From positions 734,131 to 798,130 of the forward strand of contig OY969116.1 in the NCBI GenBank assembly GCA_963698075.1: a DNA stretch of 64,000 bases, in the 5' to 3' direction. The DNA comes from an uncultured Candidatus Berkelbacteria bacterium (lineage in GTDB: Bacteria; Patescibacteriota; UBA1384; UBA12157; JAENIV01). A model generated the notes under the pieces. The model was given only the letters and a program-made list of their open reading frames with translations, ran no database searches and was not told where the DNA came from. How positions within the stretch are numbered: position 1 is the stretch's first letter; each line of letters starts with the position of its first letter. A program made the translations under genes and the position numbers. Below are positions 2,708-22,275 of this stretch, in pieces.

Positions 2708-3583
2708 ATGAACAAATTAATTCTTTGTATTGATTTGGATGAATGGTATCATGGTCGTTGGGCAACCGGATCAAAAAGGTCACACTGGCAAAACACCGAG
2801 GAGTTGTTTAAGGAATATTATCAATCCGATAGGCCTGCCGGGGAAATTATTAGACCGACCCAAGATATTCTTGAAATCTTGGGTAAAGAAAAAATTAAGG
2901 CCACTTTTTTTATTCTTGGGGAGGTTGCCCAATGGTATCCAAAACTTATCAAAGAAATTGCCAAAGAGGGTCATGAGATTGCCTGCCATGGTTTACATCA
3001 TGAGGATTTATCCTTAAAATCAAAAAGCAAGTTTATCCGGGAGCTCCGAGAAACTCGCCAAATTCTTGAGGATTTGTCAGGTCAAAAAATAATCGGTTTT
3101 AGGGCGCCAAACCTAATCGTCACCGATTGGTTGGCCCCGGTGCTTAAAGCGGAAAAATTTAGCTACGATTCCTCTGTTTGTCCGGCCAGAGCCTTTGGGG
3201 GCAAATATCAAAACCAGGCCAATATTCAACCCAATCCTTATCGGGTTGGTCAAACACTTTTAAAAAAAGGTAATTCTGGGCTTTTCGAAATCCCCATTCC
3301 CACTTTTCCGATCCTCAAACTCCCTGGCGCCGTCTCGATTGCCACGCGCATCTTTGGTTTAACTTGGACGAAAATTACTCTCAATCAAGCTTTAAAAACC
3401 GGTGCTACCTGTTATTATGTCCACCCCTATGAATTCAATCGTCCTCCGAAAGTGCCAATGACTTATCATGAGAAAATCTTTTTCAGACGCTCTGGCCCTT
3501 GGATGAGAAAGGCTTTTAGCAAAATCTTAGCCGACTACCGTTCAAGAATTACCTCGGCCAAGAACTATTTAGAAATATTTTAA
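2708..3583 (+). CDS. polysaccharide deacetylase (CE4/NodB-homology) family protein
   Basis: Motifs LILCIDLDEW (Asp-Asp motif 1) and ACHGLHHEDL (H-x-x-x-H motif 2), GFRAP; alternative TTG start at 2669. Confidence 0.75.
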   Translation: MNKLILCIDLDEWYHGRWATGSKRSHWQNTEELFKEYYQSDRPAGEIIRPTQDILEILGKEKIKATFFILGEVAQWYPKLIKEIAKEGHEIACHGLHHEDLSLKSKSKFIRELRETRQILEDLSGQKIIGFRAPNLIVTDWLAPVLKAEKFSYDSSVCPARAFGGKYQNQANIQPNPYRVGQTLLKKGNSGLFEIPIPTFPILKLPGAVSIATRIFGLTWTKITLNQALKTGATCYYVHPYEFNRPPKVPMTYHEKIFFRRSGPWMRKAFSKILADYRSRITSAKNYLEIF

Positions 3584-3588
3584 AGAAA

Positions 3589-4263
3589 ATGCCCCCAAAA
3601 ATTCCTGAATCAGAATTAGTCAAAAAATATTACAATGGCTGGGCCAGTAATTATAATTTAGCCCTGGAAGAAGAACACGAAAAAAATGTTCGGCAAAAAC
3701 TGATTAATTGGCTGTTTCAAAGAAAAAAACTTTTAGCTGAAAGGGATCAAGCGATTATTAGGGCCTGTCAAAGATTTTCTCTCAAAAACAAAAAAATTCT
3801 TGATGTTGGTTGCGGCACCGGTCAAAATAGTTTTGTCCTGGCCCGTTTGGGAGCCAAAGTCATTGGCTACGATTTTTCGGCCAAACTCGTCAAATTTTGC
3901 CGGACTAAAGCCAAAATGTTAGGTCTCGAAGATCGCGTTCACTTTGAAGTCAGAGATTTAACCAAGGATCGTCTGCCCCCAAGTGATCTGATTTTATGCT
4001 CAGCCGTGATTGAATTCTATCAAGATGTTCAGCCGATTTTTAAAAAATTTGCCCTTTCTGCCAAAGAGGCCATCATCATCGCTGACGCTCGTTTTCGTTG
4101 GCCAAGGTCGCCGCTGAGGATGATTTTGGGTCGGCTGAAAAACTTTCCGGTTTACTTCCACCAGCCGGATAAAATCAAAGCGATCGCTAAAAAATCCGGT
4201 TTTAAATGCACTTATCTTAAAATTACTCAAATCGCCCGAGTGTTTGTTTTTGAAAAAGCCTAA
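3589..4263 (+). CDS. class I SAM-dependent methyltransferase
   Basis: LDVGCGTGQNSFVLARLGAKVIGYDFS glycine-rich SAM-binding motif. Confidence 0.75.
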   Translation: MPPKIPESELVKKYYNGWASNYNLALEEEHEKNVRQKLINWLFQRKKLLAERDQAIIRACQRFSLKNKKILDVGCGTGQNSFVLARLGAKVIGYDFSAKLVKFCRTKAKMLGLEDRVHFEVRDLTKDRLPPSDLILCSAVIEFYQDVQPIFKKFALSAKEAIIIADARFRWPRSPLRMILGRLKNFPVYFHQPDKIKAIAKKSGFKCTYLKITQIARVFVFEKA

Positions 4264-4299
4264 AGATAGAAAAAATTCTTGATATGTTATACTAAAACT

Positions 4300-6528
4300 A
4301 TGGCTTTACAAACTCGAAAAAGTCACCTTTGGCTCTATTTATTTTTTGCTGCTTGGATAATTTTAATGTTTTTGCTAGGGTTTTATCTTTCACCGGTGAG
4401 CATTTTCATTATTTTTTTGGGTTTGATCTTTATTCCTGGCTTTGCTTTATCGAGGATTTTTAAAATCCAATACCAAAATGATCGTTTCGGTCAGTTGATT
4501 TTAACTTTAGTTTTAGGATTGGAATTTAATTTTACTCTTATCTTGGCGGCGATTTTATTAGGTTTGACGATCGCCGTTTTATTGAAAATATATCTTATTT
4601 TCTTTGGCCTAATTTTTATTTTAGCCTTGATTTTAGACATCTTAAAACCGCCGGAGACTAAACCTCTTTCATGGCGAGTAAAAGATTTGTTTAAAGCTGA
4701 ATATCTTGTCTATGTCCTTTTGGCCATTCTCATTCTTGCCGTTTTAATCACCGTTGATTATCTGGGGGCGAATTTTGTCGCTGATCCATTTTATAATTTG
4801 GCGATTATTCGCAAAGCCTTTGAAGGTCAACCACTGTTGATGCAAAACTTAAGCTATAATAAATATTCCCTTCATCCGGCTTTTGCTCTGCCAATTTGGC
4901 ATGTTTTTTTGGCCTTATTTACCAAAATTTTGGGGACGAATATTTTTGTTGTTTACCGAGAAATTCCGACCAGCTTAAGTCTTTTGGCTTTTCTTGTTTG
5001 GTATTGGTTATTCTTAAAAATCTTACCCAATCGTCGAGTCGCAGTGCTGGGTACGTTGTTGGTAATAATCTATTATCTGACCACCAGCGCTTATCTTTAC
5101 ACTCGGCTGCCAGTCCCGGATACCCTCAATGAATTATTTCTCATGCCTTTGGCATTTGCCGTGACTTTAAAATATATCTTTGCCCACTCCTCTAACTTTA
5201 AACATCTCATTGTTTTGATACTTTTCACCCTTTTCATGGGCATTATCCACTGGAATCATTACTTCCAATTTTTGTTTACCATGGCGCTTTTTACGATTAT
5301 CTATGCCATTTTGCAGTGGCGCTCAGGTGATTTTAAAAAAGTTTTTAAGAAAATTTTTATCGCTTCTTTTGGAAGCGTCATTTTGGCTGGCTTGGTTTTT
5401 CTACTTTTTGAGTCAAAGGGAGGGACGATCTCAGAGCATTTACAAATTTTTCCCAATTTGAAAATGCAATACCGTTATATTCGATTTGTCCAATTCGATC
5501 AATTCTTAAAATATGCCTATATATTCTTGCCTTTTCTGGTTTTGGGCATCCGTAAATACCGCCAATTGATATTTACTTTAGCTTTATTTTTGATCGGCCC
5601 GATTATTTTTAATTTTCCGGGCGTCAAGGATTTTTTAATCAATCATTTAAGCAGCGTTTTTGTTAAGCGTTTTTATGCCAATAACGGCTGGCCATTTGTC
5701 GTCTGGGCGATTGTTATTGGTTTTATTTTTGTTTTATTTGATCGCCTAATCTCAAAGATAACCCAAAAATTGATTTTTTGGCGCTATTTAATTGATGGCA
5801 TCTTGATTGCTCTGGTAATTATCGCCTTCTATACTCAGCTTAAGTTCGCCACCGCAAGTCAAATTTATCAGAGAATATTTTCACCCGGAGCTGACCAGTG
5901 GTTAAACCATTATTATCAATGGTTAATACCTATCGTTCTTATCATGGTTTTAATAATTTATTTCTTAGCCAGATATAATGCCAAAATTAATGATTTTTTT
6001 GTTTTTTCTCATTATCAAGATGAGGTTTTTATTTTTGGCCTAATCGCCCTTTTAACTATTTTACTGGCCAGTCCAGCGATCAGTCTTTTTCAAACCAACG
6101 TCAAGAAAGACCTGAGCCAGAAACATTTTATTAGAAGCCAAGAAGATCCAACTTTCTCGATCGTCGATACCAATGATTTTGGGGGAATGGCAACCATTGA
6201 TTTTATTCGCCAAAATATTCCGGCCAAGGCAGATTTTGATAGCAATTCGGCAAATTATGTTTTACCCTTGATGGTCGATGTTTTTACCATCTATACTTTT
6301 GACCCTGATCCAATCAAGAAATATAAGGATCTTTACGAAAATATTCCCATCCAAAAGAAGTTGGCCATTCTCAAAGAGGGCAAGATCGACTATATTCTCT
6401 ATGTTTTCCCCGATCCAAGTGGGAGTTCGCCCTTTGATTCTTTTGGTCAATATTTTATGAAAATCTACGATAATGGCCAGGCAGCGATTTTTAAGATAAA
6501 CAAAACAACGGTCAACGCCGCCAGCTAA
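4300..6528 (+). CDS. large polytopic membrane protein, GT-C-like (paralog 1 of 3); candidate lipid-linked glycosyl/oligosaccharyl transferase
   Basis: ~15 predicted TM helices plus soluble C-terminal domain; first-loop motif DPFYNLAIIRKA and PIWHVFLALF conserved in paralogs at 7362 and 9547; ATG 4300 (tool ORF starts at TTG 4279); extended -10 TGTTATACT just upstream. Confidence 0.6.
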   Translation: MALQTRKSHLWLYLFFAAWIILMFLLGFYLSPVSIFIIFLGLIFIPGFALSRIFKIQYQNDRFGQLILTLVLGLEFNFTLILAAILLGLTIAVLLKIYLIFFGLIFILALILDILKPPETKPLSWRVKDLFKAEYLVYVLLAILILAVLITVDYLGANFVADPFYNLAIIRKAFEGQPLLMQNLSYNKYSLHPAFALPIWHVFLALFTKILGTNIFVVYREIPTSLSLLAFLVWYWLFLKILPNRRVAVLGTLLVIIYYLTTSAYLYTRLPVPDTLNELFLMPLAFAVTLKYIFAHSSNFKHLIVLILFTLFMGIIHWNHYFQFLFTMALFTIIYAILQWRSGDFKKVFKKIFIASFGSVILAGLVFLLFESKGGTISEHLQIFPNLKMQYRYIRFVQFDQFLKYAYIFLPFLVLGIRKYRQLIFTLALFLIGPIIFNFPGVKDFLINHLSSVFVKRFYANNGWPFVVWAIVIGFIFVLFDRLISKITQKLIFWRYLIDGILIALVIIAFYTQLKFATASQIYQRIFSPGADQWLNHYYQWLIPIVLIMVLIIYFLARYNAKINDFFVFSHYQDEVFIFGLIALLTILLASPAISLFQTNVKKDLSQKHFIRSQEDPTFSIVDTNDFGGMATIDFIRQNIPAKADFDSNSANYVLPLMVDVFTIYTFDPDPIKKYKDLYENIPIQKKLAILKEGKIDYILYVFPDPSGSSPFDSFGQYFMKIYDNGQAAIFKINKTTVNAAS

Positions 6529-6540
6529 ATTTCCAGTTCT

Positions 6541-7287
6541 CTAATATTGATAATCAGCCAAGTTGATATAATTATATTTATCTATTTTGGCGGTATATCC
6601 CTGTCCCAATTTGAGCATAAAATCTTTGACATTAATGACCCGAACAACATCTTCTTGAGCTTTTTCATTTAATTGGTCACCTGCTTTTAGGAAAAATTTC
6701 TTTGTCTCACGTGGCTGACCGGCCATTAATTCCTCCGCACTTTTATTTATCCAAACATTAATCGTCGGATCAAGAATTTGCCAATGACCGTCAAATTTGA
6801 TCTCGACAAACCCGTGGGACCCATTATTGGTCGAGATAGTTCTAAATTCATAGCCGCCAGCTCTGTCTAAAAGCATGGCCAAAAAAAGAGTATTCGTTCC
6901 GCAATGAAAGTACTCACTGCCCCAGAGCACTTCTTTGAACGTATTTTCTTTGAGTTCTCTTTTGCCGTAAAACCCGAACATATGAACAAAATTCATCATA
7001 AAGAGGGCTCGTAGTTTATATTCATCAGAGGTGCCTGCCATTTTGACAAAAGTGGAGTGATATTTCGCTAAACGCTTATCTAATTTTTGGACAACGACGG
7101 CGGCTGAATCTTCGTTGCCAGCAAGAATCTCATTTTTGTCAAAGATTTTGTAATAAGTTTCTGATGATTTGGGGTTTAAGTGGGTTGAATTATATTTGAA
7201 CCAAGCAACTCCACCGACCGCCAAGATTAAAAATATAATTATTCCCCAAATTAAATTCCTGTGTAAAAATCCCTTAGAGCGTCTCAT
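6541..7287 (-). CDS. transglutaminase-like (Cys-His-Asp) superfamily protein, membrane anchored
   Basis: CGTNTLFLAMLLDRAGG...HGFVEIKFDGHWQILDP catalytic triad arrangement; N-terminal TM; probable leaderless start MRRSKG (promoter TTGAGA-18-TATATT), longer ORF to 7323 possible. Confidence 0.6.
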   Translation of the reverse strand: MRRSKGFLHRNLIWGIIIFLILAVGGVAWFKYNSTHLNPKSSETYYKIFDKNEILAGNEDSAAVVVQKLDKRLAKYHSTFVKMAGTSDEYKLRALFMMNFVHMFGFYGKRELKENTFKEVLWGSEYFHCGTNTLFLAMLLDRAGGYEFRTISTNNGSHGFVEIKFDGHWQILDPTINVWINKSAEELMAGQPRETKKFFLKAGDQLNEKAQEDVVRVINVKDFMLKLGQGYTAKIDKYNYINLADYQY

Positions 7288-7361
7288 GATTTGAATATAC
7301 CACATTTCTCTCAATTTTCTCAAACTTCTGCTCGGGCAATATATGTTATACTAAAAATAGA

Positions 7362-9550
7362 ATGCGAAACATTAGTTTAGAAAACTTCCGACGAGGTTTC
7401 ATTTTAGAATATATTCTTTGGATTTTATTTGGCTTATTATTTTTGATCTTAGCAAAGACTGCACCCCAGATTTTTGCCAATCCTTGGTTTTTCTCCATGG
7501 CTTTTTTATATTTATTGCTTTTGCCGGGCTGGTTGCTTTTTGGAATTTTGAAAATTAAAATCGAAGATTTTGCCGGTCTTTTCCTTTGCTACTTGACCTT
7601 GGGTTTAATTTTTTATCTTATCCTGGCTTTGTTGGCAGTTCTAGCTGCTTTGAGCCTGGCTGCTTTAATTAAAATTTCCTTTGGACTGCTGATTCTTTTA
7701 TTTGTTTTAGGCTTCCTCTTAGCCCTTTTTAGACCCGCCAAAACACCAACTCTCCCCAAAAAAATTACCGAGGCTGATCTCTTCTTGTTATTGCCAATTA
7801 TTTTTGGGGCATTCATACTCTATGTCGTTTATCTGAAGGGACCCGGTTTAGATGGTGATCCCTATTTACACCTTTCAATTATTCGTAAAGCTTTTTTGGG
7901 AGATTCATTGTCGCCTCGGGCGCTGGCTTTCGCCAAAACTGGGCTCATCATGCCAGCTTATAATTATCCGATTTGGCATGTTTTCTTAGCTTTTTTAAGC
8001 AAAATCTTATCCTTGGACCCACTCATTGTCTGGTCCAATGTTTTATTTGCTTTGACAGCGATCATGCTCTTTATCTGGTACTGGTTTTTTAAGAAAATTT
8101 TTGTCCAAAAGGGCTGGTCGATTTTGGCTCTTTTAATTTTTTTGGCAGTGACCTTTTATGTCGGCACTGGTTATTTATTCACTCGCTTAGCGGTTCCGGA
8201 TACGCTTGCTCAATTCATTCTTTTGCCTCTTTTAATTGCCTTAAGCCTGGACTATATTTTCGCCCAAAACCAAAATCGAAGCCTGCTAGTTATTATTAGC
8301 TTGTTGGCCATTATTTCCCTTATCATTCATGGCCCTCATTATTTTTACTTCTTATTTATCTTTCTAATTTTCGGCCTCCTTTACACCATCGTTGGTCTCA
8401 AAGATAATGCCTACAAAATCATTTTAAAAAAGATCGGTGAAGTCATTTTCATCTCTTTAATTCCCCTTGTACTTTTTGGGATTATAGTTGAAGCCCTAAG
8501 TGGCTCTTTGTCTATGATTCTAGCTGAATTTTCTAAAGCTTCCCCCCCAGAACTGAGGACGCAATTTTCAAGTTTTGGCTTGCTGACGAGATATGGATAT
8601 TTTCTTATTCCCTTCACCATTCTTTTTGTCCGACAAAAAAGAATTCTTTTTGTCATCAGCTCAATGGCCTTAGTGCCGTTAATCTATTGGACACCACTGG
8701 GAAATTTTTTGGGAAAAATTTTAAGTTTTGTTTTTGTCGAAAGATTGCGCGATAACACCGCCTTTTATTTCCTAGTTATCACCTTGATTTTGGGCCTTTT
8801 TGTTTTGGCCATCGACCGTCTCGCTAGTCTTTACTCGCGTTATCGCCATCTCTTGGAAATAATTTTAGTTGCCTTATTTTTCTTTCTTGTCGGATTGGAA
8901 GTTCGATCCCACAAAATTACCTCCTTTTCTTATAAGATTTTTTATGATAAATCAACCGCGGCCTATCTTGATAATCATTTAATTTGGCTTGTTTTTATCA
9001 GCTTTTTTTGGCTTTATTGGCTTGCCTGGTTCGGAAATTTTTGATTAAAAAAGAGATCATCATTAGTCAACAAATCTTTCAAAATCAATTAATCTGTTTT
9101 TTGGTAATCGTAATAATTGCTTTTTTCTTTTTTGCGCCATCATTGGAATATCTCCCGGTCGACTTACATCAACCAATGAAAGAAACTGCCCAGGATTATT
9201 TCCTAAGAAGGCTTAGTGGTGACCCGGGGGCTTTGTCTTTTGTCCAAAAAAACCTACCAGCAAAGTCGGTTATTTTAGCTGACGAAAATGCGACTAAAGT
9301 GCTCTCGGTGATGACCGGTAATTATATGGCTTACAACGTTGGTTCTGCTTATGAAGAGAGATTTAATTGGGTTTTTGACCCAACCACTCCAGATTCCGAG
9401 AAGGTAAATATCGTCACCTCTCCCGAATGGGCGATTGACTATATTTATTTGGCCGATCCGACCGCTGAGGGCCAGCATTTTCGCCTCCATCCAGAAATTT
9501 ATCAGAAAATATATGATGGACAGACAATAATTTATCAAGTGACTAAATGA
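7362..9550 (+). pseudogene. GT-C-like membrane protein paralog 2, interrupted by -1 frameshift at T7 homopolymer (9004-9010); possible phase-variable gene
   Basis: ORF 7362-9044 (560 aa) and ORF 8984-9550 (188 aa) overlap in different frames; together colinear with paralogs 1 and 3; T8 would give an in-frame fusion (...SFFLALLACLVRKFLIKKE...). Confidence 0.55.
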
Positions 9551-11763
9551 AAATTAAAGCTTACTATCTTTATTTATTGTCACTTATTTGGTTAGGTGTT
9601 TTGGCCGCCTTGCTTAGGTTTACTCATCTTAATGTCACTGGTCTTGGAATGACGTTGACGGTTTTGACCTTAATCTTTTTACCAGGGATTTTTCTCTGGC
9701 GGTTAATTAGGTTTGAAAACGTTAATTTATCGATTAAATTACTCTATATTATTGGCTTAGGTTTTGTTTTTTATTTTTTTCTCAATTTCTTGGCCCTCAT
9801 ATTTAAAATGACGCTCGGGCAACTTTCTTTTGCCATTGGGTTTTTTAGCCTGGTCTTATTTTGCTTAAGTTTTTGGGAAGACCGTCAAAATCTTTTCGAG
9901 ATAGATTTTATTTGGATTAAGAAACAAACAATTGGCGATTGGCTTTTGATTGCCCTCCTCCTTGTCGGTGTTATCGCCGCTTTTTTGGGAGTTGATGCCC
10001 AATCGAATAAGGTTATCGGTGATAGTAGTTTCCATTTGGCCATCCTCAAAAAAGTCCTCACAGCCGAAAACCTCTCTCCCCATAATCTCTGGGTTACCAA
10101 GACGACCAGCCTTAATCTTGTCTACTCTTTTCCTGTTTGGCATATCTTCCTCGGTTTTTTGAGTAAAATTCTTAATTTAAATACAATTACTACCTATACG
10201 GAAGTCCTTTTGCCTCTAGTCGTTTTAGCGATCATGGTCGTTTTGGGATTCATTAAGGCGGTTTTTCAAAATAAATATCTTGTCATCGTCAGTTTTTTGA
10301 CTTTTCTGGCTCTTTCTTTTAGCGCCGGAATTTTTTACAACCTGGTGCCGCTTCGGTCACCAGATTCCTTGGTCAGATTGTTACTTTTCCCTTTAGTTTT
10401 AGGATTAACAATTAATTATTTAATCGATACCAAACCCGTCAAGTCAAAAATTTTTGCCAATGTCTTTTTCATTTCTTTTTTGGCGATTTCGATGGGATTA
10501 GTTCACTTTCCTCAACTGATCGAATATTTTTTAATTTTAGGCCTCTTCTTAATTTTTTGGCTCATTTTTAACCGAGGAAAAGAAGCTTTGAAAAAACTCG
10601 CCTGGTTATTCTTGACTCTAGCTGTCTTAATCTTGCCGTATCTTTTAATTTTCCAATTGATGAACTTACGCCATTTTTTTCAAAGCAATTTAGCCAATTT
10701 TACCGATGATCATTTTCGTAATAAGTCTTACATCGTTTCATCAAATATCTATCTTTATACTGTCTTTGCTTTGCCGCTGATGGCCTTATTTTTCAAAAAG
10801 GAACGTCGGCTGATTTTTGTGGTCGCGATTGCCCTCGGTCTCTTGATGATTAGTTGGCAAGTGTTCCAATTACGCCTATTTTTTCTGAAATATTTCGGAG
10901 AAGTTTTTACGATTAGAGCCATCACTGACATTCCCAGTTTCCTTTATGTGGGTTTTATTATCTTTTTATTAATTCTTTTGCTAAATCTTTGTTTCCGAAA
11001 AAAAATCTTTGCCTACTTATCTTCTAGCGTTTTGATCGGCGGCTTTTTATTGATTCTTGCTTTCCGAGCTGCTCCAGTGAAAAATTTTATTGACACCGTG
11101 ATCATTTCTGCCAAGAATCCATTTTTTTATGACTATTTTGTGCCTATTTTAATCGTTCTGGTAGCGGTATCGATAGTAATCTTCGTTTACCAAAATTTTA
11201 TCCGGAAGAAAGATTTAACTATTCAAGATCCTCCCAATAAAATTAATTTCGTCGTGATAACTTTCATTTTATTGGCAATTTTATCCATGCCTTATCTGAG
11301 TGATTTTAGATATGTCTTAGCTCATAATCCCAATGGCTCGCTCATAAATAACCGAGAAATTCAAGCTGTCGGTGATATTCAAAGGGTCGGCGGCAAAGAA
11401 ACGATTGATTTTTTACAAACCCTGCCACCCAGGGCAGTCCTGATTACCTCGAGCATTACCGTGGCTCAGATACTTTTGCCCAATATCAGTCAGTATTTGG
11501 CAGAATATCCCTACGGCATCAACGAATTTAGCTATAGTCAAAAGCTTTATGACCCCAATCTTTCGCCCGAGGGTCGCCAAGAAATTTTGGACAAACACCC
11601 AGTTGATTATGTTATTTGCCTTAGATCTTGGGAGACTGTTCTTTTCGAAGGCCAAACGGGATTTGAAAAAATTTATCAAAAAAAATATTCTTATACTGTC
11701 CAAAGTGGTCAAATTTCTTATCAAAAAGAAGCCGAGTTCACCATTTTTAGCTATCTTCATTAA
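9547..11763 (+). CDS. large polytopic membrane protein, GT-C-like (paralog 3 of 3)
   Basis: 738 aa, motifs DSSFHLAILKKV, FPVWHIFLGFLSKIL, C-terminal soluble domain similar to paralogs; start overlaps upstream stop (ATGA). Confidence 0.6.
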   Translation: MKIKAYYLYLLSLIWLGVLAALLRFTHLNVTGLGMTLTVLTLIFLPGIFLWRLIRFENVNLSIKLLYIIGLGFVFYFFLNFLALIFKMTLGQLSFAIGFFSLVLFCLSFWEDRQNLFEIDFIWIKKQTIGDWLLIALLLVGVIAAFLGVDAQSNKVIGDSSFHLAILKKVLTAENLSPHNLWVTKTTSLNLVYSFPVWHIFLGFLSKILNLNTITTYTEVLLPLVVLAIMVVLGFIKAVFQNKYLVIVSFLTFLALSFSAGIFYNLVPLRSPDSLVRLLLFPLVLGLTINYLIDTKPVKSKIFANVFFISFLAISMGLVHFPQLIEYFLILGLFLIFWLIFNRGKEALKKLAWLFLTLAVLILPYLLIFQLMNLRHFFQSNLANFTDDHFRNKSYIVSSNIYLYTVFALPLMALFFKKERRLIFVVAIALGLLMISWQVFQLRLFFLKYFGEVFTIRAITDIPSFLYVGFIIFLLILLLNLCFRKKIFAYLSSSVLIGGFLLILAFRAAPVKNFIDTVIISAKNPFFYDYFVPILIVLVAVSIVIFVYQNFIRKKDLTIQDPPNKINFVVITFILLAILSMPYLSDFRYVLAHNPNGSLINNREIQAVGDIQRVGGKETIDFLQTLPPRAVLITSSITVAQILLPNISQYLAEYPYGINEFSYSQKLYDPNLSPEGRQEILDKHPVDYVICLRSWETVLFEGQTGFEKIYQKKYSYTVQSGQISYQKEAEFTIFSYLH

Positions 11764-11776
11764 GAATTGAGGTCAA

Positions 11777-12706
11777 TTGCCCAAATTGTTAAAAAAAGTA
11801 ATTCTAATAGTCCTGGTTTTAAGTTTAGTCTTTGTGATCGGGTTAAATTTTCTTACCCCTAAGAAAAATTCCCAATTTCGGGTCAGCTCTTTTAAAATTA
11901 ACCAACTCGACCAAGATGAAATGCCGTTTACCTTCGACAAGATTGCCCCTCTTGAAAATGATTTTCCCACCGATCAAGATGGCATCATTCTATATAATAA
12001 TCAATATTATCACCCCGGTCAGATTGCCGATGAGGGCTTATTTTTGGTTGATACTTATCGTCAAATCAACAACCAGGAATTCTTGCTTCGAGCGGAAAAA
12101 TACGCCCATAAACTTTTAGAGTTGTCGCTTAAATCAAATGGGGCGCTTTATTTTCCTTACCCCTTTGATTTCCCTTTACATGGCTTAAAAGATGACGTCA
12201 TGAGAGCTCCCTGGTATTCAGGAATGACTCAGGGCGAGGCCCTTTCCCTTTTTAGCCGACTTTACGGGATAACTCACAAAAAAGAATATTTGATGGCCGC
12301 CGATCAGACATTTCAAAGTTTCGTAAATTTTAATCACAATCCCTGGATAGTCAATGTCGACGACAACAATTATTATTGGATTGATGAATACCCAGAAGAA
12401 AACCCCGACCAAACTCTTAACGGTTTTATTTTTGGGACTTTCGGTTTGTATGATTATTATCTTTTAAAAAAAGATTCCTCATCAAGAAAAATGCTCATGG
12501 CAGCTTTTACCACCATCAAGCACTATTTACCAGCATTCAGGAATCCAGGGAAAATAAGTTTCTATTGTCTTAAACATAAAGTCCAGAATGCACCTTATCA
12601 TAAAATTCACATCAGGCAGCTGAATCAGCTTTATAAAATAACCGGGGATTCATTCTTCAAAACAATGGCCGATAATTTTTATCAAGATTATCATGAATCA
12701 ACTTAA
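11777..12706 (+). CDS. D-glucuronyl C5-epimerase C-terminal domain-like protein, membrane anchored
   Basis: RAPWYSGMTQGEALSLFSRLYGIT resembles the WYSAMAQGQAIS motif of Glce-type C5-epimerases; N-terminal TM helix. Confidence 0.55.
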   Translation: MPKLLKKVILIVLVLSLVFVIGLNFLTPKKNSQFRVSSFKINQLDQDEMPFTFDKIAPLENDFPTDQDGIILYNNQYYHPGQIADEGLFLVDTYRQINNQEFLLRAEKYAHKLLELSLKSNGALYFPYPFDFPLHGLKDDVMRAPWYSGMTQGEALSLFSRLYGITHKKEYLMAADQTFQSFVNFNHNPWIVNVDDNNYYWIDEYPEENPDQTLNGFIFGTFGLYDYYLLKKDSSSRKMLMAAFTTIKHYLPAFRNPGKISFYCLKHKVQNAPYHKIHIRQLNQLYKITGDSFFKTMADNFYQDYHEST

Positions 12707-12711: not shown

Positions 12712-13917
12712 TTATCTTACGAAAAGAGATTGCTCCAAAACTCGATAAAAATTTTCATCAGAGAATTTTTCGATGGCCAATCTACGGGCATTTTTTGAAT
12801 ATTGGCTGACGATTTGAGGGTTATTATAAAGCTTTAAAATAACTTGTGAAAGTTCTCTGGAAGCTCCAGGTCGTACGACTAAACCAACATTATTTGATTC
12901 AATTAGTTCTTTTAAGTTTTTGCCAGCACAAGCCACAATCGGCTTACCACACCCGAGATATTCGCTAGTTTTTGTCGGTAAGGCATTATCAGAAAAAAAT
13001 TTGTTTGGGGAAAGAGAGATTAAACCAAGATCTGAAGCATTAATCAGCTCGATAATTTTTTCCGTTGGTTGGCCATCAATGAAAATAATATTTTTTAATT
13101 TAAAATCTTTGGCTTGATGAATGAGGTTTTCTTTGTCTTCACCTTCTCCAACAAGGAAAAATATAATTTTAGGATATTTTTTAAGTAATTGGGCGGTTTC
13201 AATGACAGTTTTTAGATTTTGAACTTGGGTTAATGAGCCAACATAAATAACGACAAAATCATCTGGGGAGAGTTTGAATTTTGGTCGCGAGACTTCTGCG
13301 GGTTTAAAAAGATTAATGTCAACGGTATTAACTAAAGTAATTACCTTTTCTTTAGGGATTCCCATTTTAATAATAGTTTTTCTGATTTCCCCCGTCGCCG
13401 AGAAAATTTTTTGCGATCGGCGATAGTAAAGTCTCTCGAGGCCCTTCAATGTTTTTTTAATCATCTTGTTTGGTTTATAACCTAATTCGAAAGCAGAATC
13501 TGGCCAGAGATCACGAACATCGAAGATAAAATTACCCCTGCCCATCCAGATGGCAAAAAGACCGGCTAGCCCTGAAAAAAAGTTTGGTGAGGAAACAATT
13601 ACTAAATCGAAAGGTTCCATAAAAAAGATCGTCAAACAAGCCGCCAAAACGAAAACAAGATGGTTGATCGTTCTTCTAATAAAGCCCTTATTAGGAGTTG
13701 GCAAGTCCCAAACCCTAATGATATTTATTCGTCCGTCACGTTCTTTAGTCCAAAGTTTGCCACGATATTCCGGTGGTAGAATACCGGTTGGGTAGGAGGG
13801 CAGACTGGTGAGTACTGTTGTTTCATATCTTGAGGCCAAAAATTCAGCAATCCGGGACATCCTTTTGACTGGCGACTTCACTGGTTTGTACCAATGACTA
13901 ATAAGTAGCGCGCGCAT
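12712..13917 (-). CDS. glycosyltransferase family 4 (WcaI-like)
   Basis: GT-B fold length (401 aa), C-terminal LVGEGEDKENL...EYLGCGKPIVA nucleotide-sugar binding region. Confidence 0.7.
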   Translation of the reverse strand: MRALLISHWYKPVKSPVKRMSRIAEFLASRYETTVLTSLPSYPTGILPPEYRGKLWTKERDGRINIIRVWDLPTPNKGFIRRTINHLVFVLAACLTIFFMEPFDLVIVSSPNFFSGLAGLFAIWMGRGNFIFDVRDLWPDSAFELGYKPNKMIKKTLKGLERLYYRRSQKIFSATGEIRKTIIKMGIPKEKVITLVNTVDINLFKPAEVSRPKFKLSPDDFVVIYVGSLTQVQNLKTVIETAQLLKKYPKIIFFLVGEGEDKENLIHQAKDFKLKNIIFIDGQPTEKIIELINASDLGLISLSPNKFFSDNALPTKTSEYLGCGKPIVACAGKNLKELIESNNVGLVVRPGASRELSQVILKLYNNPQIVSQYSKNARRLAIEKFSDENFYRVLEQSLFVR

Positions 13918-14281
13918 GGCCTCTCTTTCTGACTGCCGCTCCTTTTTTGATATTTTTTAAGGCCAAGGCTCTGACTAATCGAGTGATTTCTTTTTCTTGC
14001 TCATTGGATTTGACATAGAGTCGATAAGTGGCATAAAAAAGCGCCACGATTCCTAAAAAGAACATGGCATCATTGCCGCGTTCCATCCCTAGGATTTTGG
14101 CTAAAAAATTGGTTTTGCCGGGAATAAAAACTAAAATAATCATTGCCAACCAAAGAAATGACCAAAAAATTAGTTCTTTTAAGTTTAAATCTTTAGAATA
14201 AAAACGAATCACCGCTCTCGACCAGGCAAAGACAGCGAAAAGGGTAAAAAGAATTTTGATTAAGGCAAGAGAAAGATGCAT
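13898..14281 (-). CDS. DUF2304-like small membrane protein (GT2-associated)
   Basis: 127 aa, three TM segments, basic C-tail; typical partner immediately downstream of Dpm1-like GT2. Confidence 0.5.
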   Translation of the reverse strand: MHLSLALIKILFTLFAVFAWSRAVIRFYSKDLNLKELIFWSFLWLAMIILVFIPGKTNFLAKILGMERGNDAMFFLGIVALFYATYRLYVKSNEQEKEITRLVRALALKNIKKGAAVRKRGHARATY

Positions 14282-14302: not shown

Positions 14303-15013
14303 CTATTTAGTAAAAAATCTCCTGTAAATTAACTTGGAAATGATGCGCAAGGCATTGATATTTTTTTGTCCTTTTCCTAATGAGTAATCAGTATAAACAC
14401 TTTTAACCGGGACTTCAATTAATTTTAATTCGTGGCGGCCTATCTCGTAAAAAAATTCGCTCGAAACCTCCATTTTATTTGACTGAATATCAATTTTTGA
14501 TAGAGACTTTTTGGAAAAAGCCCGTAGTCCTGATTGCGAATCCGTTGACCAGACCCAGAAAAAGAGAACTGTAATTAAATTAAGTCCCCAAATACCAATC
14601 ATTCGATACCATGGCATTCCTTGGGGATTTTTAAGCCGTGAACCGATAACAACGTCAGATTGGCCATAGACAATTGGTCTTAACACCGGCCAAATATCAT
14701 CACTTTGATGTTGGCCGTCGGCATCAAAAGTTAAGACCACGTCAAACTGGTTTTCGCGGGCATATTCAAAACCGGTTCCCAAGGCACCACCCAAACCTCG
14801 GTTTAAATTATGTTCGATTAAAGTGATCCCGGCTTGTAAGTGACTTTGAACAATTTCGGCGGTTTTATCAGTTGAGCCATCGCTGATAACAACAATTTCT
14901 GTTTCACGGATTCCCGGGTAACGGCGGGGGATCGATTCTAAAACCGCCTTAATGGTTTTTTCCTCGTTGTAGGCTGGGATAATGATGGCTAACTTTATCT
15001 GTTTTTTTAACAT
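14303..15013 (-). CDS. GT2 polyprenol-phosphate glycosyltransferase (Dpm1/GtrB-like)
   Basis: LAIIIPAYNEE...VISDGSTDKT...DADGQH motifs (DxD, GT-A fold). Confidence 0.8.
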   Translation of the reverse strand: MLKKQIKLAIIIPAYNEEKTIKAVLESIPRRYPGIRETEIVVISDGSTDKTAEIVQSHLQAGITLIEHNLNRGLGGALGTGFEYARENQFDVVLTFDADGQHQSDDIWPVLRPIVYGQSDVVIGSRLKNPQGMPWYRMIGIWGLNLITVLFFWVWSTDSQSGLRAFSKKSLSKIDIQSNKMEVSSEFFYEIGRHELKLIEVPVKSVYTDYSLGKGQKNINALRIISKLIYRRFFTK

Positions 15014-15035: not shown

Positions 15036-15132
15036 TTCCAATGGTGATTGTGACTTTACCATACAACGGCTTTGGGAACTTTGGCAAGTCCCCTATCTTT
15101 TTACCTTAAAATTTGCTAAAATATCTGTAGAT

Positions 15133-15219
15133 GGAGAGATGGCAGAGTGGCCGATTGCGCCGCACTTGAAATGCGGTATCCTCGCAAGGGGATCGGGGGT
15201 TCGAATCCCTCTCTCTCCG
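15133..15219 (+). tRNA. tRNA-Ser (anticodon TGA), long variable arm
   Basis: Cloverleaf folded by hand: acceptor GGAGAGA/TCTCTCC, anticodon stem CCGCA/TGCGG, loop CTTGAAA, variable arm, T-loop GGTTCGAATCC; CCA not encoded. Confidence 0.85.
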
Positions 15220-15247
15220 AATTGGATTTAGTGTATGATAATTTTAT

Positions 15248-15339
15248 GGAGAGGTCGCATAGTTTGGCCTAGTGCGGCACGGTGCTAACGTGCTGAGTCC
15301 GCAAGGGCTCCGTGGGTTCGAATCCCACCCTCTCCGCCA
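15248..15339 (+). tRNA. tRNA-Ser (anticodon GCT), long variable arm, CCA encoded
   Basis: acceptor GGAGAGG/CCTCTCC, anticodon loop GTGCTAA, T-loop GGTTCGAATCC, 3' CCA present. Confidence 0.85.
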
Positions 15340-15500: not shown

Positions 15501-15523
15501 TTCGAATCCCACCCTCTCCGCCA
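15501..15523 (+). repeat. 23-nt direct repeat of tRNA-Ser(GCT) 3' end (TTCGAATCCCACCCTCTCCGCCA), att-like scar
   Basis: exact match to 15317-15339, 161 bp downstream of the intact tRNA. Confidence 0.6.
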
Positions 15524-15608
15524 CGTAATAAATTTGTGAACAAATTTAAACGTGGCTGAGACGTTTAAATCTATTGATTTATTACGTCTCGCCAAAATTA
15601 AAAAATAT

Positions 15609-16457
15609 ATGAAATTTTCTTTCAAATTAAAAAAACGTTTGGGGATTACCGAACTTCAGAAAAACACTCGCCAATTGATCGAAATTCTTTCGGAAAATTA
15701 CGTCAAGGAAAATCTCTTTCAAAATCCTAAATATCAAAACCCAAAAAAACTCAACCGCTTTGAATTTCAGGTTTTTTCCCAAAACGGTGAAGACGGCATT
15801 ATCGAAGAAATTTTTAAGCGTATTGGCACAACAAATAAGTTTTTTGTTGAGTTTGGCGCTGCCAATGGTCTTTGGAACAATACCACCCACCTTCTTATTA
15901 AAGATTGGAAGGGTTTATGGATTGAGGGTGATGAGGAATGTATTGCTGAGATTAAGACCAAGTTCGCTCGTCTTATTGATAAGAAAAAATTAATTATTCG
16001 AAAAGACTATGTGACTCCAGAGAATGTTGAAGATTTATTTAAAGAAGCCCGGGTTCTCCAGGATTTTGACCTTTGCTCCATTGATATTGACGGCAATGAC
16101 TACTGGGTTTGGCAGGCGATCCGAGAATTTAAGCCCCGCGTCATGACAATCGAATACAACTCTTTATTTCGTCCGGAGACCAAATGGGTGATGAAATACA
16201 ACCCCAAACATTTCTGGAATCAAACTTGCTATGCTGGCGCCAGCCTAAAGTCACTCGAAATATTAGGAGCCCAAAAAGGCTATAGGCTGGTTGCCTGCGA
16301 CTTCCTTGGTGTCAATGCCTTTTTCGTCAGGAAAGATTTAGTCAAAGATAAATTCCTCTCTCCATTCACTGCCGAGAATCATTACGAGCCGCCCCGCTAT
16401 TTTCTTTCGCGATCGCTTGGCCACCCCCGCGATTTCGGCGATTTTGAAAATATCTAA
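15609..16457 (+). CDS. hypothetical protein (possible polysaccharide-modifying enzyme)
   Basis: ORF with FSQNGEDGIIEEIF and DIDGNDYWV motifs; ATG 15609 chosen, GTG 15552 alternative overlaps tRNA fragment. Confidence 0.45.
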   Translation: MKFSFKLKKRLGITELQKNTRQLIEILSENYVKENLFQNPKYQNPKKLNRFEFQVFSQNGEDGIIEEIFKRIGTTNKFFVEFGAANGLWNNTTHLLIKDWKGLWIEGDEECIAEIKTKFARLIDKKKLIIRKDYVTPENVEDLFKEARVLQDFDLCSIDIDGNDYWVWQAIREFKPRVMTIEYNSLFRPETKWVMKYNPKHFWNQTCYAGASLKSLEILGAQKGYRLVACDFLGVNAFFVRKDLVKDKFLSPFTAENHYEPPRYFLSRSLGHPRDFGDFENI

Positions 16458-16472
16458 ATTTTGTGCTAACTT

Positions 16473-17360
16473 TTGAAGGCCATGACTTTTCCAAACGGTA
16501 AACAATTTGCCTTTAGCATTGTTGATGACACGGACGGGGACGAAATCGAAAACACCCGTCCAATTTATGAATTTTTGGTCAATTTGGGTCTGAAAACTAC
16601 CAAGACCGTTTGGGCACAAAAATCCCGTGATGGTTTTAAGGGTCTTTCTTTAGAGGATTATCGATATCGCCAATACATTAAAAAACTCGAACGATCAGGT
16701 TTTGAAATTGCTTTCCATGGCGTCGGCTCAGGTCGATTTACCCGACAAGATATTATCGATGGCCTTGAGGTTTTTCACCAATTCATGGGTTTTTATCCCA
16801 AAATTCAGATTAATCACGGTCAAAATCCTGACAACCTCTATTGGGGCGTCAAAAGATTTTCTTTTTTGCGGCCTTTTTGGCGCTGGAGCCATTTTCGCGG
16901 CGACGATCCCGAATCAATTTATTTCTGGGGCGATTACGCCCAAAAATATATCAAATTCATCCGCAATTTTACCTTTAAAAAACTTAACTTGCTCAAGTTT
17001 GACCCATTTATGCCTTATAAAGAAACCAGAAAAGTTTATGCCAATTATTGGTTTAGCGCCACCGAAGCCCCAGATGTGGTCAAATTTAACAAAATCGTAA
17101 ATCAGGAAAGCCTCGATCGTTTAATTAAAGAGAAAGGCATGGCCATTGTCTATACTCATTTTGCCTCGGGATTTTGCCGAGCCGGGCGCCTCGATCGCAC
17201 CTTTCAGCGGAATATGGTCTATCTTGCCCGTCGAAATGGCTGGTTTGTACCGGCAGGTGATTTGTTGGATTATCTTTTAAAACAGGGTAGAGGCAAAGAG
17301 ATTAGTTCTTGGCAAAAATTAAGTCTCGAAGCCGAATGGTTGCTTAATAGAATATTTTAA
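16473..17360 (+). CDS. hypothetical protein, divergent polysaccharide-deacetylase-like
   Basis: FSIVDDTDG and EIAFHGVGSG resemble NodB motifs 1/2 loosely. Confidence 0.4.
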   Translation: MKAMTFPNGKQFAFSIVDDTDGDEIENTRPIYEFLVNLGLKTTKTVWAQKSRDGFKGLSLEDYRYRQYIKKLERSGFEIAFHGVGSGRFTRQDIIDGLEVFHQFMGFYPKIQINHGQNPDNLYWGVKRFSFLRPFWRWSHFRGDDPESIYFWGDYAQKYIKFIRNFTFKKLNLLKFDPFMPYKETRKVYANYWFSATEAPDVVKFNKIVNQESLDRLIKEKGMAIVYTHFASGFCRAGRLDRTFQRNMVYLARRNGWFVPAGDLLDYLLKQGRGKEISSWQKLSLEAEWLLNRIF

Positions 17361-17410
17361 TTCTTGAAAAAAAGTCTCTTCTGGAGTAAAATAATAATAA
17401 GTTCGATCAT

Positions 17411-17483
17411 GTCCCCATAGCTCAGCGGATAGAGCGTCAGCTTGCGGAGCTGAAGGTCGGGTGTTCAAATCACCCTGGGGACG
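17411..17483 (+). tRNA. tRNA-Arg (anticodon GCG)
   Basis: acceptor GTCCCCA/TGGGGAC, anticodon stem TCAGC/GCTGA loop TTGCGGA, T-loop GGGTGTTCAAATCACCC. Confidence 0.75.
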
Positions 17484-17493
17484 CTATTTTATT

Positions 17494-18954
17494 ATGTCTT
17501 ATACCCGCCGCGTGGCCTTCAATACTATCGTTCAAGTCATTGGTAAGGTTCTCACCACCTTGATTTCTTTATTTTTGGTTGCCGCGCTTACCCGTTACTT
17601 GGGCGTTTCCGGTTATGGCCAATACACCACGATTTTTGCCTTCACTCAATTTTTTGCCGTTTTTGCCGATTTCGGCTTTTTTTGGTTTTTGGTTCGTGAG
17701 ATTTCCAAACCCGACGCGCCGCAAGAGAAGATTTTTAACAATGTCCTCACTTTTCGCACTTTTGTGGCATTGGTGGTTTTTGTTATTGCCTTTATCGCGG
17801 CGTTATTCATTCCTCAATATCATGATTTCCGTTTCGGCATCGGGATTATTGCCGCCGCCTCTTTCTGGCAAGTTCTCAATGGTACTTATGTCGGTATTTT
17901 CCAGAATCGTCTGAGAATGGACAAAGCGGCTTTGACTGATGTCTTAGGCCGTCTTGTGATTTTGTTAATAGTGCTTTGGCAAATCAAAACTGGTACTAAC
18001 TTAAACAGAATCCTCTGGTCATATTTTGCCGGCAACATGGTTAATTTCCTCGCCAGCGCCTTTTTGGGACGGATTTATCTTCGCTTTCGACCGGCTTTCG
18101 ATTTTGGCTACTGGCGACGGATAATCACCGAATGCTTTCCGATTTTTTTGGTCTCAATCTTGAGTCTGATATCTTTCAAAATCGACACGGTCATGCTTTC
18201 GCTTTTAAAAAGTTCAACCGATGTCGGCATTTACGGACCGCCCTACAAAGTCATTGAAATTTTCATCCTTTTGCCAGGGATTTTTATGGGCAATGTTTTT
18301 CCGATTTTGACCAGTTACATTTATTCGCAAGACAAGCGACTTTTTGGCGCCTTTCAAAAATCTTTCGACTTTTTAATCATTGCCGCTTTGCCCCTGGTTG
18401 CTGCCGTCATTGTTTTGGCCGAAAGGGTTATCAGGATAGTTGCTGGCCAGGATTTTGTCAGCGCCCATACCATTGGGCCAGTTTTGGGCCTCCCGGCTAC
18501 TTCAGTTCTGGCTTTACAAATTCTCATCATTGCCGTCGCCATCGCTTATATTTCCCACCTTTTCAATTACATGGTCATTGCCTTGGGTAAACAAGCTAAG
18601 CTCATTGGTCCCAATATAATTTTTGTGATTTTTAATGTGGCCTTAAACTTATTTTTAATCCCAAGATTCTCTTATATCGGGGCCGCCCTGGTCACGGTTT
18701 TAACCGAGATAGTCGTGGTTTCTCTCTACTTTAGGGTTTTGCGTCGCTATCTGGTAATTAAGATTAACCTGGACATCTTGCCAAAAACGATTCTTGCGGC
18801 TATAATCTTGGGTCTGACCCTTTACTGGCTAAGATTTTTAAGTCTCTGGTATTTGGTGCCAATCGGGATAGTCATCTATTCGATTGCTTTATTCTTAGTC
18901 AGAGGCATATCCAAAGAAATGATCCTCGCCGTTATTAAGCCAAAAAACTCATGA
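17494..18954 (+). CDS. oligosaccharide flippase (Wzx-like, MOP superfamily) / polysaccharide biosynthesis protein
   Basis: ~487 aa, 12-14 TM, typical Wzx N-terminus; ATG 17494 just after tRNA-Arg. Confidence 0.7.
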   Translation: MSYTRRVAFNTIVQVIGKVLTTLISLFLVAALTRYLGVSGYGQYTTIFAFTQFFAVFADFGFFWFLVREISKPDAPQEKIFNNVLTFRTFVALVVFVIAFIAALFIPQYHDFRFGIGIIAAASFWQVLNGTYVGIFQNRLRMDKAALTDVLGRLVILLIVLWQIKTGTNLNRILWSYFAGNMVNFLASAFLGRIYLRFRPAFDFGYWRRIITECFPIFLVSILSLISFKIDTVMLSLLKSSTDVGIYGPPYKVIEIFILLPGIFMGNVFPILTSYIYSQDKRLFGAFQKSFDFLIIAALPLVAAVIVLAERVIRIVAGQDFVSAHTIGPVLGLPATSVLALQILIIAVAIAYISHLFNYMVIALGKQAKLIGPNIIFVIFNVALNLFLIPRFSYIGAALVTVLTEIVVVSLYFRVLRRYLVIKINLDILPKTILAAIILGLTLYWLRFLSLWYLVPIGIVIYSIALFLVRGISKEMILAVIKPKNS

Positions 18955-20027
18955 AAATAGCGATAGATACCCAGACAACTTTAGGTCAAAAATCAGGGTT
19001 TGGTTTTTACGTCAAAAATTTGGTCGAGGCCCTGGCTAAGGTTGATCACCAGAATGAATATTTTTTGATTCGCCCCAACACCGAAAAAGATTTTTCGACT
19101 CCTCAAAGATTGCTCTGGGATCAGGTAATTTTTCCTAATCGCGCCCGGCAAAAAAAAGTTGATTTACTCCATCAGCCCTGTTTTTCGGCCCCCTTGTTAT
19201 ATCCAGGCCGCGTGATTGTTACTTGTCACGATCTTATTTCCATCTTTTTCCCGGCAAATCTTCCCCTGGCTTCCCGTCTTTTTTACTCTCAATGGGAACC
19301 ATTTTCTTATCGCAAGGCCTCAAAAATTATCGCAATATCGGAGCACACCAAAAAGGATTTAATGGCTTTTTTGAAGATTCCCGAAGAAAAAATCAGCGTT
19401 ATCCAATTGGCGGCTTCAAGAGATTTTCGACCCGTTAAATCGAAGAAAACTTTAAAAAAAATTCAAAAGAAGTATCGCACCGGGCCAAATTATATTTTGG
19501 ATGTCGGTACCCTAGAACCGCGCAAGAATTTGTCTTTCTTGGTTCGTGCCTACGCCCTGGCGGTTCGCGAGGGAGCTGACGTCAATTTGGTGATTACTGG
19601 TAAAAAAGGTTGGTATTTTGAAGGATTATTTAAATTAGTAGCCGAGCTCAATTTAAAAAATAAAATCATCTTCACCGGCTATGTTGAGGAGAAGAACCTC
19701 CCTGCCCTTTATTCCGGCGCCAAAGCCTTTGTTTTCCCCAGTCTTTATGAAGGTTTTGGTCTGCCGCCGCTGGAGGCGATGGCCTGTGGCGCACCCGTAA
19801 TTTCTTCGAGTACCTCCTCCATGCCCGAGGTCATTGGCCAAGCAGGAATCCTTATTTCGCCCAAAGATGAACGGGTCTGGGCCCAAAATATTCTCAAAAT
19901 CCTCCGTGACAAAGGTTTAGCCCGGACTTTAAGCCAAATGGGTTTAAGACAGGCGAAGAAGTTTTCGTGGGAAGAGACCGCCCGAAAAACCATCGAAGTC
20001 TATAAGGAGGTTATAAATTATACGTGA
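18951..20027 (+). CDS. glycosyltransferase family 4
   Basis: [20 protein letters not shown] motif. Confidence 0.8.
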
Positions 20028-20063
20028 TACGTATATACGTGTAACTTTTAACTTTTAACACTT

Positions 20064-21209
20064 ATGAAAATTGCCATCGACGCTTCGAGGGCCATTAATG
20101 AGAAAGCAGGGATTGGTCGTTACACTCGCGAGCTGGTCAAAAAAATGATTGAAGTCGATAAAAAAGCCTGCCTGCCGGCAGGCAGGAATCAGTATCTTCT
20201 GATTTTCAGTTTTTTCCGCCAAAGCCCTCAAAAAGAAAAACTCATCAAAACCTTCGAAAATTCTAATGCTAAAATAAAAATTTTAAAAATCCCGGGTGCA
20301 CTCAAAGAAAAGGCCTGGCAATGGCGCCTATCATGGTATGAGAAGTTTTTGGAAGGCGCCGATGTTTTCTTTGCTCCCTCATTTTTTGAGGTTAATTTTG
20401 GTCTGAAGATTCCTCAAGTAGTGACGATTCATGATCTTTCAACCTTCATTTTCCCCAGCCACCGGGGGGAAAATGTCTCCCAAAGATTATCCAAACGAGC
20501 TAAGGCAGCGGCCAAAATTGCCAAAAAAGTCATCTCTGTATCGGAGTCAACCGCTCAAGACACCATTAAATATTTAAATGTCAACCAAACTAAAATCAAG
20601 GTCATCTATCCGGGAATCACTGATTTGCCAACCCCGGTCAAAAATTTACCGGCGTCTTTGAAGCCCCAATCTTACATTCTTTTTGTCGGTACGATTGAAC
20701 CAAGAAAAAACTTAATCGGTCTTTTTAAGGCCTATGCTCTTTTGCCGCCAAGATTGCAAGAAAAATATCCGTTAGTAATTGTTGGCGCCGAAGGTTGGCA
20801 GACCGGTGAGATTTTTGCCACTATTCGGCTGCTCAATTTAGAAGATAAGGTGAAGTTTTTAGGTTTGGTGAGCGATAACATTTTGACCAAGCTCTATCAA
20901 GAGGCCGCGGTTTTTGTTTACCCTTCGTTATATGAGGGTTTTGGCCTGCCGGTTTTGGAAGCGCTCTCTTTTGGGACGCCGGTGGTTACCTCAAATATCT
21001 CTTCTTTGCCAGAAGTCGCTGGCCCAGCCGCCCTCCTGGTGGAGCCCCAAGAGCCCAAGTCAATTGCTAGAGGCCTACAGCGGCTTTTAGAGGGCAAATT
21101 TGAGCGTGAAAACTTGCGAAAAAAGGCCCAAAAACAGGTTCAAAAATTCTCCTGGGACCGGGCGGCCAAAGAGACTATCAAAGTTCTTGAGGAGGTAGGT
21201 CGTGGCTAA
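20064..21209 (+). CDS. glycosyltransferase family 4
   Basis: EGFGLPVLEALSFGTPVVTS motif. Confidence 0.8.
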   Translation: MKIAIDASRAINEKAGIGRYTRELVKKMIEVDKKACLPAGRNQYLLIFSFFRQSPQKEKLIKTFENSNAKIKILKIPGALKEKAWQWRLSWYEKFLEGADVFFAPSFFEVNFGLKIPQVVTIHDLSTFIFPSHRGENVSQRLSKRAKAAAKIAKKVISVSESTAQDTIKYLNVNQTKIKVIYPGITDLPTPVKNLPASLKPQSYILFVGTIEPRKNLIGLFKAYALLPPRLQEKYPLVIVGAEGWQTGEIFATIRLLNLEDKVKFLGLVSDNILTKLYQEAAVFVYPSLYEGFGLPVLEALSFGTPVVTSNISSLPEVAGPAALLVEPQEPKSIARGLQRLLEGKFERENLRKKAQKQVQKFSWDRAAKETIKVLEEVGRG

Positions 21210-22275
21210 ACCTGTCCTTGCCATTCTAACTGAATCTATCAGATACGATAATCAGCATGCACTTGAGTATTTCTCTAAAATCAAACCGGTCCATTTTTAT
21301 AAAACGGCGCCTTATGGGGATTTGACGAAGAACGATCTGAAAGACGCGGTTAAATACCATAATTTCGCCGACTTAGAAAAGAAGTTACTGACTTTAAAGC
21401 CCGATATTATTCAAGGTGCTGAACCATATGGATCGAAAATTCAGTTACGGCTTTGTCATATCGCCTGGCGGGTTTCGCGCCAGCTTAATATTCCGCTCAT
21501 TTTCGGCATGCTCGAAAACCGGCCGGTTAAAGAGAGGTTTGGCAAATTATTGGCGCCAATGCTTAAAAAAGTTTTGGCGGCTTATGCGAAACAGGCAAGG
21601 CTAATATTTTATCTAAATTCCGGGGCGAAGCGGAATCTCCTGGAAGTGGGGGCTGATCCATCGAAACTGAAGAAATTACTATATGGCATCTGGGGCGTTG
21701 ATAGCTCTGTTTTTAAACCACTAAAACCTAAAACCTTGAACCTAAAACCTCACATTTTATTTGCCGGCAGAATTGATGAAGCCAAGGGAATTCCGTATTT
21801 GCTTGAGGCGTGGAGCATGATTTGGCGGGATTATCCTGATATTGAGTTGGTCATGGCAGGCAAAGGGGAGATGGAAGATAGAGTAAAAAGGGAAAAGGGC
21901 ATAAGGTATATAGGCATGGTCAAAAATCAGGATTTGCCGGCCTTATTTAATCAGGCCTTGTTTACAGTTTATCCATCAGTGACTCTAAAGCGCTGGGAAG
22001 AGCAGGTAGGGATGGTTAATTTGCAGTCGCTTTCTTGCGGCACGCCAGTTATCACCACCAAATCCGGCGCCATTCCCGAATATATCAATAGTAAAGTGGG
22101 GATTTTGGTACCAGAGCGAGATTCAAAAGCGCTGGCCGAGGCAATGCGGAAATTATTATCGGATACTAAATATCGCCAAAGATTGGGAGCTGCCGGCCGG
22201 CAATATATCTTAGAGAACTTTGATGCTAAAAAGACGATAGAGAAGGTAGAAAATCTCCTTATAGGACTCTTATAA
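21202..22275 (+). CDS. GT4-like glycosyltransferase (divergent)
   Basis: GT-B C-terminal domain region FAGRIDEAKGIPYLLEAW...CGTPVITT. Confidence 0.6.
   Translation: MAKPVLAILTESIRYDNQHALEYFSKIKPVHFYKTAPYGDLTKNDLKDAVKYHNFADLEKKLLTLKPDIIQGAEPYGSKIQLRLCHIAWRVSRQLNIPLIFGMLENRPVKERFGKLLAPMLKKVLAAYAKQARLIFYLNSGAKRNLLEVGADPSKLKKLLYGIWGVDSSVFKPLKPKTLNLKPHILFAGRIDEAKGIPYLLEAWSMIWRDYPDIELVMAGKGEMEDRVKREKGIRYIGMVKNQDLPALFNQALFTVYPSVTLKRWEEQVGMVNLQSLSCGTPVITTKSGAIPEYINSKVGILVPERDSKALAEAMRKLLSDTKYRQRLGAAGRQYILENFDAKKTIEKVENLLIGLL

Follow-up and report, generated by a model that had tools for sequence, protein, structure and literature searches.

Three predicted GT-C-fold paralogs beside a candidate polyprenyl-phosphate sugar operon in a Candidatus Berkelbacteria contig

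The window studied here, a 64,000-nt stretch of a contig from a Candidatus Berkelbacteria member of the candidate phyla radiation, encodes three membrane proteins (P1, P2, and P3) that most likely attach lipid-carried sugars, supplied by the products of adjacent genes, to the cell surface. On balance, we favor the view that they are paralogs that diverged long ago within an uncharacterized GT-C family (GT-C_A type) and act as extracytoplasmic GT-C transferases using polyprenyl-phosphate-linked sugars, following the logic of GacI/J/L, PpgS-Rv3779, or Arn, with a glycan or a protein as the acceptor. This view rests on homology, predicted fold, residue conservation, topology bias, and synteny, from which we infer donor and acceptor identity, residue roles, and the division of labor among the paralogs. 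The proteins combine a known fold (GT-C) with an undescribed family, and have an STT3-like shape without the STT3 signature motif.

Paralogs and gene neighborhood

The genes of the locus are as follows.

2669..3583, + strand: CE4 polysaccharide deacetylase (Polysacc_deac_1 plus DUF3473; Pfam PF01522, 6.1e-22; NCBIfam TIGR03006, 1.9e-38, below cutoff)
3589..4263, + strand: SAM-dependent methyltransferase (Pfam Methyltransf_31/25/11, 1e-13 to 2e-16), also upstream of P1 in related locus L006
4300..6528, + strand: P1, 742 aa from ATG 4300 or 749 aa from TTG 4279
6541..7323, - strand: membrane-anchored protein with a Cys/His/Asp pattern, between P1 and P2
7362..9550, + strand: P2, split here into ORFs 7362-9044 (560 aa) and 8984-9550 (188 aa)
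9547..11763, + strand: P3, 738 aa, putative GT-C-fold membrane glycosyltransferase
11777..12706, + strand: N-terminal TM anchor plus D-glucuronyl C5-epimerase C-terminal domain (Pfam PF06662, 1.3e-38)
12712..13917, - strand: GT4 (WcaI-family-like), last gene of a conserved GT2-DUF2304-GT4 operon that faces P1-P3 (Pfam Glycos_transf_1, 2e-25; NCBIfam WcaI family, 2.8e-46)
13898..14281, - strand: DUF2304 small membrane protein of the GacJ/Rv3632 family (Pfam PF10066, 4.5e-23; syntenic, 56-93% identity)
14303..15013, - strand: GT2 polyprenyl-phosphate glycosyltransferase, PpgS/GacI/Dpm1-like (Pfam Glycos_transf_2, 3.2e-28; syntenic, 67-88% identity)
17494..18954, + strand: Wzx-type flippase (Pfam Polysacc_synt, 2e-28)
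18951-20027, 20064-21209, and 21202-22275, + strand: three consecutive GT4 (Pfam Glycos_transf_1, 8e-33 to 2e-39)

P1, which is identical to the deposited protein P0001, shares 32% identity with P2 (BLASTP, E 2e-48) and 25% identity with P3 across the full length (E 9e-23), and it also matches the P2 tail ORF (E 2e-7). The first-pass annotation described three adjacent homologous proteins of ~740 aa. The homology holds, as does the size for P1 and P3, but P2 is not a single ORF here, and an opposite-strand ORF stands between P1 and P2. P2 reads as two ORFs because of a -1 frame change at a T7 run (9003-9009), and one added T gives a 729-aa protein. A second variable homopolymer in P2 is the C7 run at 8542-8548. 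An independent assembly (L010), otherwise identical over 8418 bp, has T8 and C6 at these runs; P2 is therefore frameshifted in both assemblies at different homopolymers, and combining their in-frame states gives an intact 729-aa P2. P2 orthologs elsewhere are intact (720-731 aa). Each paralog has its own orthologs (38-60% identity) and all three keep the conserved residues described below, which indicates selection on each of them. The triplication is ancient and is found in synteny in related Patescibacteria.

Pfam and NCBIfam models agree with most of the neighbors proposed at first, namely the CE4 deacetylase, SAM methyltransferase, C5-epimerase C-terminal domain, GT2, DUF2304, Wzx, and four GT4. 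The "transglutaminase-like" label for the 6541-7323 protein is unsupported: this protein has no match in Pfam, NCBIfam, or PDB, and only a C..H..D pattern is visible. In L001 and L005, P1 has a homolog of it (53% identity) as a neighbor. The CE4 deacetylase is probably cytoplasmic, since neither a signal peptide nor a TM segment is evident, and the CE4-methyltransferase-P1 order is kept in L006 with 64% identity. The PDB sequence matches of the 11777-12706 protein are D-glucuronyl C5-epimerases (2.9e-12). The neighborhood had been said to supply everything that a lipid-linked glycosylation pathway needs; this goes too far, because no initiating phosphoglycosyltransferase was found among the window ORFs scanned. 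The proposed "supercluster" is broken by tRNA genes at 15132-15339 and 17411-17484, and Wzx likely starts at ATG 17494 because the GTG 17461 opening overlaps the latter (tRNA-Arg). Further along the window are Wzy_C proteins. The window's other GT-C gene (PMT_2, 34949-36544) is accompanied by a separate GT2 (37653-38375), a point in favor of the donor link discussed below.

Fold, topology, and conserved residues

The AF2 models are confident (for P1, pLDDT 86.5 and pTM 0.89). In a Foldseek search against PDB, matches 1-28 are all GT-C enzymes (DPY19, STT3, ArnT, AftA, PglB, AglB, AftD, and Pmt; best E 3e-6), and AftB is also among the fold matches, bearing out the GT-C-like fold first suggested. 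The models contain ~17 TM helices instead of the ~15 counted earlier, which we interpret as a 13-helix core resembling STT3/ArnT, preceded by four additional N-terminal helices. The loop that carries the motif, previously placed as the first extracytoplasmic loop, comes after TM5 and is thus the first large outside loop. The N-terminus is predicted inside the cell, and a ~135-aa alpha/beta C-terminal domain is predicted outside the membrane, its nearest solved structure being the AfAglB-S2 C-terminal globular domain. The K+R density of P1 and P3 is 22-25% in inside-assigned loops versus 9-10% in outside-assigned loops, a bias that puts both the motif loop and the C-terminal domain on the extracytoplasmic side.

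Two motifs recur in the paralogs, with the common forms DPxxHLxIxRK and PxWHxFL.

4783-4815: P1 loop motif, DPFYNLAIIRK
4891-4911: P1 second motif, PIWHVFL
7857-7889: P2 loop motif, DPYLHLSIIRK
10021-10053: P3 loop motif, DSSFHLAILKK
10132-10152: P3 second motif, PVWHIFL

The loop motif lies where it was first reported, but the earlier regular expression fails at position 3 of P3 (S, not F/Y). The P(I/V)WH(V/I)FL motif is found in all three paralogs, as PIWHVFL in P1 and P2 and as PVWHIFL in P3. Among 86 full-length family members, the loop motif has D in 99%, H(+4) in 97%, and K/R at +10 in 100%, while PxWHxFL has W in 99% and H in 92%; given this conservation, the motifs are not chance. A conserved polar set lies on the outer face of the model (numbering of the 749-aa form of P1): D169, H173, and K179 where the large loop begins, followed by H208, H324, and R464, with H324 and R464 each conserved in all 86 members. 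The conserved acidic residue that had been sought, D169, opens the large outside loop and is the only near-invariant one in the family; the Asp at the EL2 position (D281) is kept in 80% of the family but shows no conservation among more remote relatives. Of 37 such DUF6541/DUF6077-like proteins, 35 have D/E at position 169, 35 keep H324, and 29 keep R464. Conservation and position suggest the roles of D169, H324, and R464 proposed below.

The sole sequence-level link of the family is to Pfam DUF6541 (PF20176) and DUF6077 (PF19554). Three family members match DUF6541 (best 1.9e-10) and two match DUF6077 (1.3e-7), and the family profile retrieves proteins bearing these domains at ~1e-38, with D169, H324, and R464 kept. 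P1-P3 of the window match neither model even at E<=1. Most of these relatives, unlike P1-P3, have ~650 aa and no C-terminal domain. No mention of DUF6541 or DUF6077 was found in the literature library searched.

A candidate donor operon

The window, L005, L007, and L009 share the order P1-P2-P3 with a convergent GT4-DUF2304-GT2 after it, and L003 carries three P1-like paralogs at the same position beside GT4-DUF2304-GT2. GT2-DUF2304 synteny is found at five of nine informative loci; within the DNA examined, the pair was not seen beside the paralogs in L001, L004, L006, or L008. The GT4 of the operon has syntenic counterparts at 48-71% identity in L003, L005, L007, and L009, and in related loci the paralogs adjoin Wzx or a putative lipid flippase (LPG_synthase_TM). 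The best NCBIfam model for GT2 is PpgS (2.6e-41, full length, below the equivalog cutoff at 141 vs 370 bits), followed by AglJ and Dol-P-hexose transferase and then ArnC (4.4e-10). GT2 is presumed to be the donor synthase and, by analogy, the DUF2304 protein its activator. GacI and PpgS, which synthesize polyprenyl-P-HexNAc, are stimulated by the DUF2304 proteins GacJ and Rv3632 (bioRxiv 10.1101/180810), and the products of GacI and PpgS serve the GT-C enzymes GacL and Rv3779. The synteny points to a polyprenyl-monophosphate-sugar donor made by the PpgS/GacI-like GT2 with DUF2304, an arrangement that would parallel that of the side-chain transferases ArnT, GacL, and Rv3779.

In the proposed mechanism, GT2, stimulated by DUF2304, would charge polyprenyl phosphate with a sugar (probably a HexNAc) on the cytoplasmic side of the membrane. 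The co-operonic GT4 may extend the lipid intermediate, or the CE4 deacetylase may trim it, before it is flipped across the membrane. In each paralog, the conserved Asp would be catalytic or metal-binding and the Arg/His would hold the lipid phosphate, and each paralog would transfer the sugar to its own position or acceptor on a cell-surface glycopolymer or protein.

By gene logic, the locus resembles GacI-GacJ-GacK-GacL (Streptococcus group A carbohydrate) and PpgS-Rv3632-Rv3779 (M. tuberculosis arabinogalactan GalN), in both of which a GT-C transferase is accompanied by a candidate flippase and by a GT2-type polyprenyl-P-HexNAc synthase with its DUF2304 activator; deacetylation precedes transfer in the M. 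tuberculosis system, and a CE4 gene lies close to P1 here. The locus differs in that it carries three GT-C paralogs where those systems have one, that its donor operon includes a GT4, and that the P1-P3 fold bears an OST-like C-terminal domain. The ArnC-ArnD-ArnE/F-ArnT pathway (lipid A aminoarabinose; ArnT is GT83) likewise uses a GT2 acting on Und-P, CE4-type de-acylation, flipping, and GT-C transfer, and GT2 here matches the ArnC model as given above. However, the CE4 deacetylase shows no more than a negligible match to ArnD (E 0.033), P1-P3 have no sequence similarity to ArnT, and lipid A is not expected in an organism of this lineage.

Alternative roles of the paralogs

P1-P3 could instead be divergent STT3/AglB-type (GT66) oligosaccharyltransferases, a role that is less likely than donor-sugar transfer and that we consider improbable. 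Such enzymes would transfer a lipid-linked oligosaccharide en bloc onto proteins (S-layer, pilins) by an acceptor rule other than N-X-S/T, with the oligosaccharide built by the GT4s and flipped by Wzx; the AglJ/PpgS-like GT2 might initiate the glycan on polyprenyl monophosphate, as in haloarchaea. OSTs are the best structural matches for both AF2 models; these matches and the OST-like C-terminal domain would fit an en-bloc transferase equally well. The shared features include a multi-TM GT-C_A core, to whose 13-TM OST form the helix count of 13 plus 4 corresponds, and a conserved Asp starting a long outside loop with two short helices. The adjacent Wzx and four GT4 could build an oligosaccharide donor, no phosphoglycosyltransferase was found among the scanned ORFs, AglJ is the second-best GT2 model, and one GT4 is co-operonic with GT2. 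The yeast STT3 loop FDPWFNYR, given by the first-pass annotation as a parallel, is confirmed in PDB 6c26. In favor of this role, hhalign finds a 22-residue co-linear C-terminal segment (family 690-711 vs yeast STT3 553-574, 45% identity, P 0.0034), but this is the only segment aligned, and the loop motif is not part of it. WWDYG, already noted as missing, occurs in 0 of 86 members, any WWD is likewise absent from all 86, and the STT3 Pfam model matches neither P1-P3 nor the family even at E<=1, so that membership of the STT3/AglB/PglB family is undetectable from sequence. Full and C-terminal profiles give no PDB sequence match either. Also against this role are the single near-invariant acidic residue, with D281 not conserved in remote relatives, the absence of the C-terminal domain from most of those relatives, and the fusion of some relatives to F5/8-type-C carbohydrate-binding domains. 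P1-P3 differ from OSTs as well in four extra N-terminal helices, in the conserved D/H/K/H/H/R in place of D, DxD, and E, and in having a polyprenyl-monophosphate-sugar synthase as genomic partner instead of a PP-linked pathway with a phosphoglycosyltransferase.

It is similarly unlikely that the three paralogs share one polyprenyl-P-sugar donor in the manner of Emb/Aft and polymerize a homoglycan outside the membrane instead of decorating an existing polymer, acting sequentially (priming, elongating, branching) or as a hetero-oligomer. The mycobacterial embCAB genes are three tandem GT-C paralogs using decaprenyl-P-arabinose, and EmbA-EmbB form a heterodimer. The fixed order of the three paralogs with one donor synthase operon is similar, AftA, AftD, and AftB are among the fold matches, and the membrane-anchored C5-epimerase-like protein beside P3 suggests modification at the polymer level. 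However, P1-P3 have no sequence relationship to Emb or Aft, they differ from Emb in size, soluble domains, and lineage, and their C-terminal domain is OST-like instead of Emb's carbohydrate-binding type. Wzx in the locus and Wzy_C further along the window point to a polymer assembled in blocks, which could then receive side chains.

That P1-P3 are not glycosyltransferases but transporters, structural membrane proteins, or decaying pseudogenes (P2 alone or all three) is very hard to credit: P2 is frameshifted at different places in both assemblies and the curated Pfam and NCBIfam models do not match the paralogs, but the transporter-family placement that had been raised at first did not occur (Foldseek returns transporters only at non-significant scores, E>0.5 and probability <0.15), outside-facing D/H/R are invariant in the three paralogs and across the 86 members, P2 orthologs are intact, and the assemblies differ at two homopolymer runs only.

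The P1-P3 family comes so far mainly from Patescibacteria metagenome assemblies.

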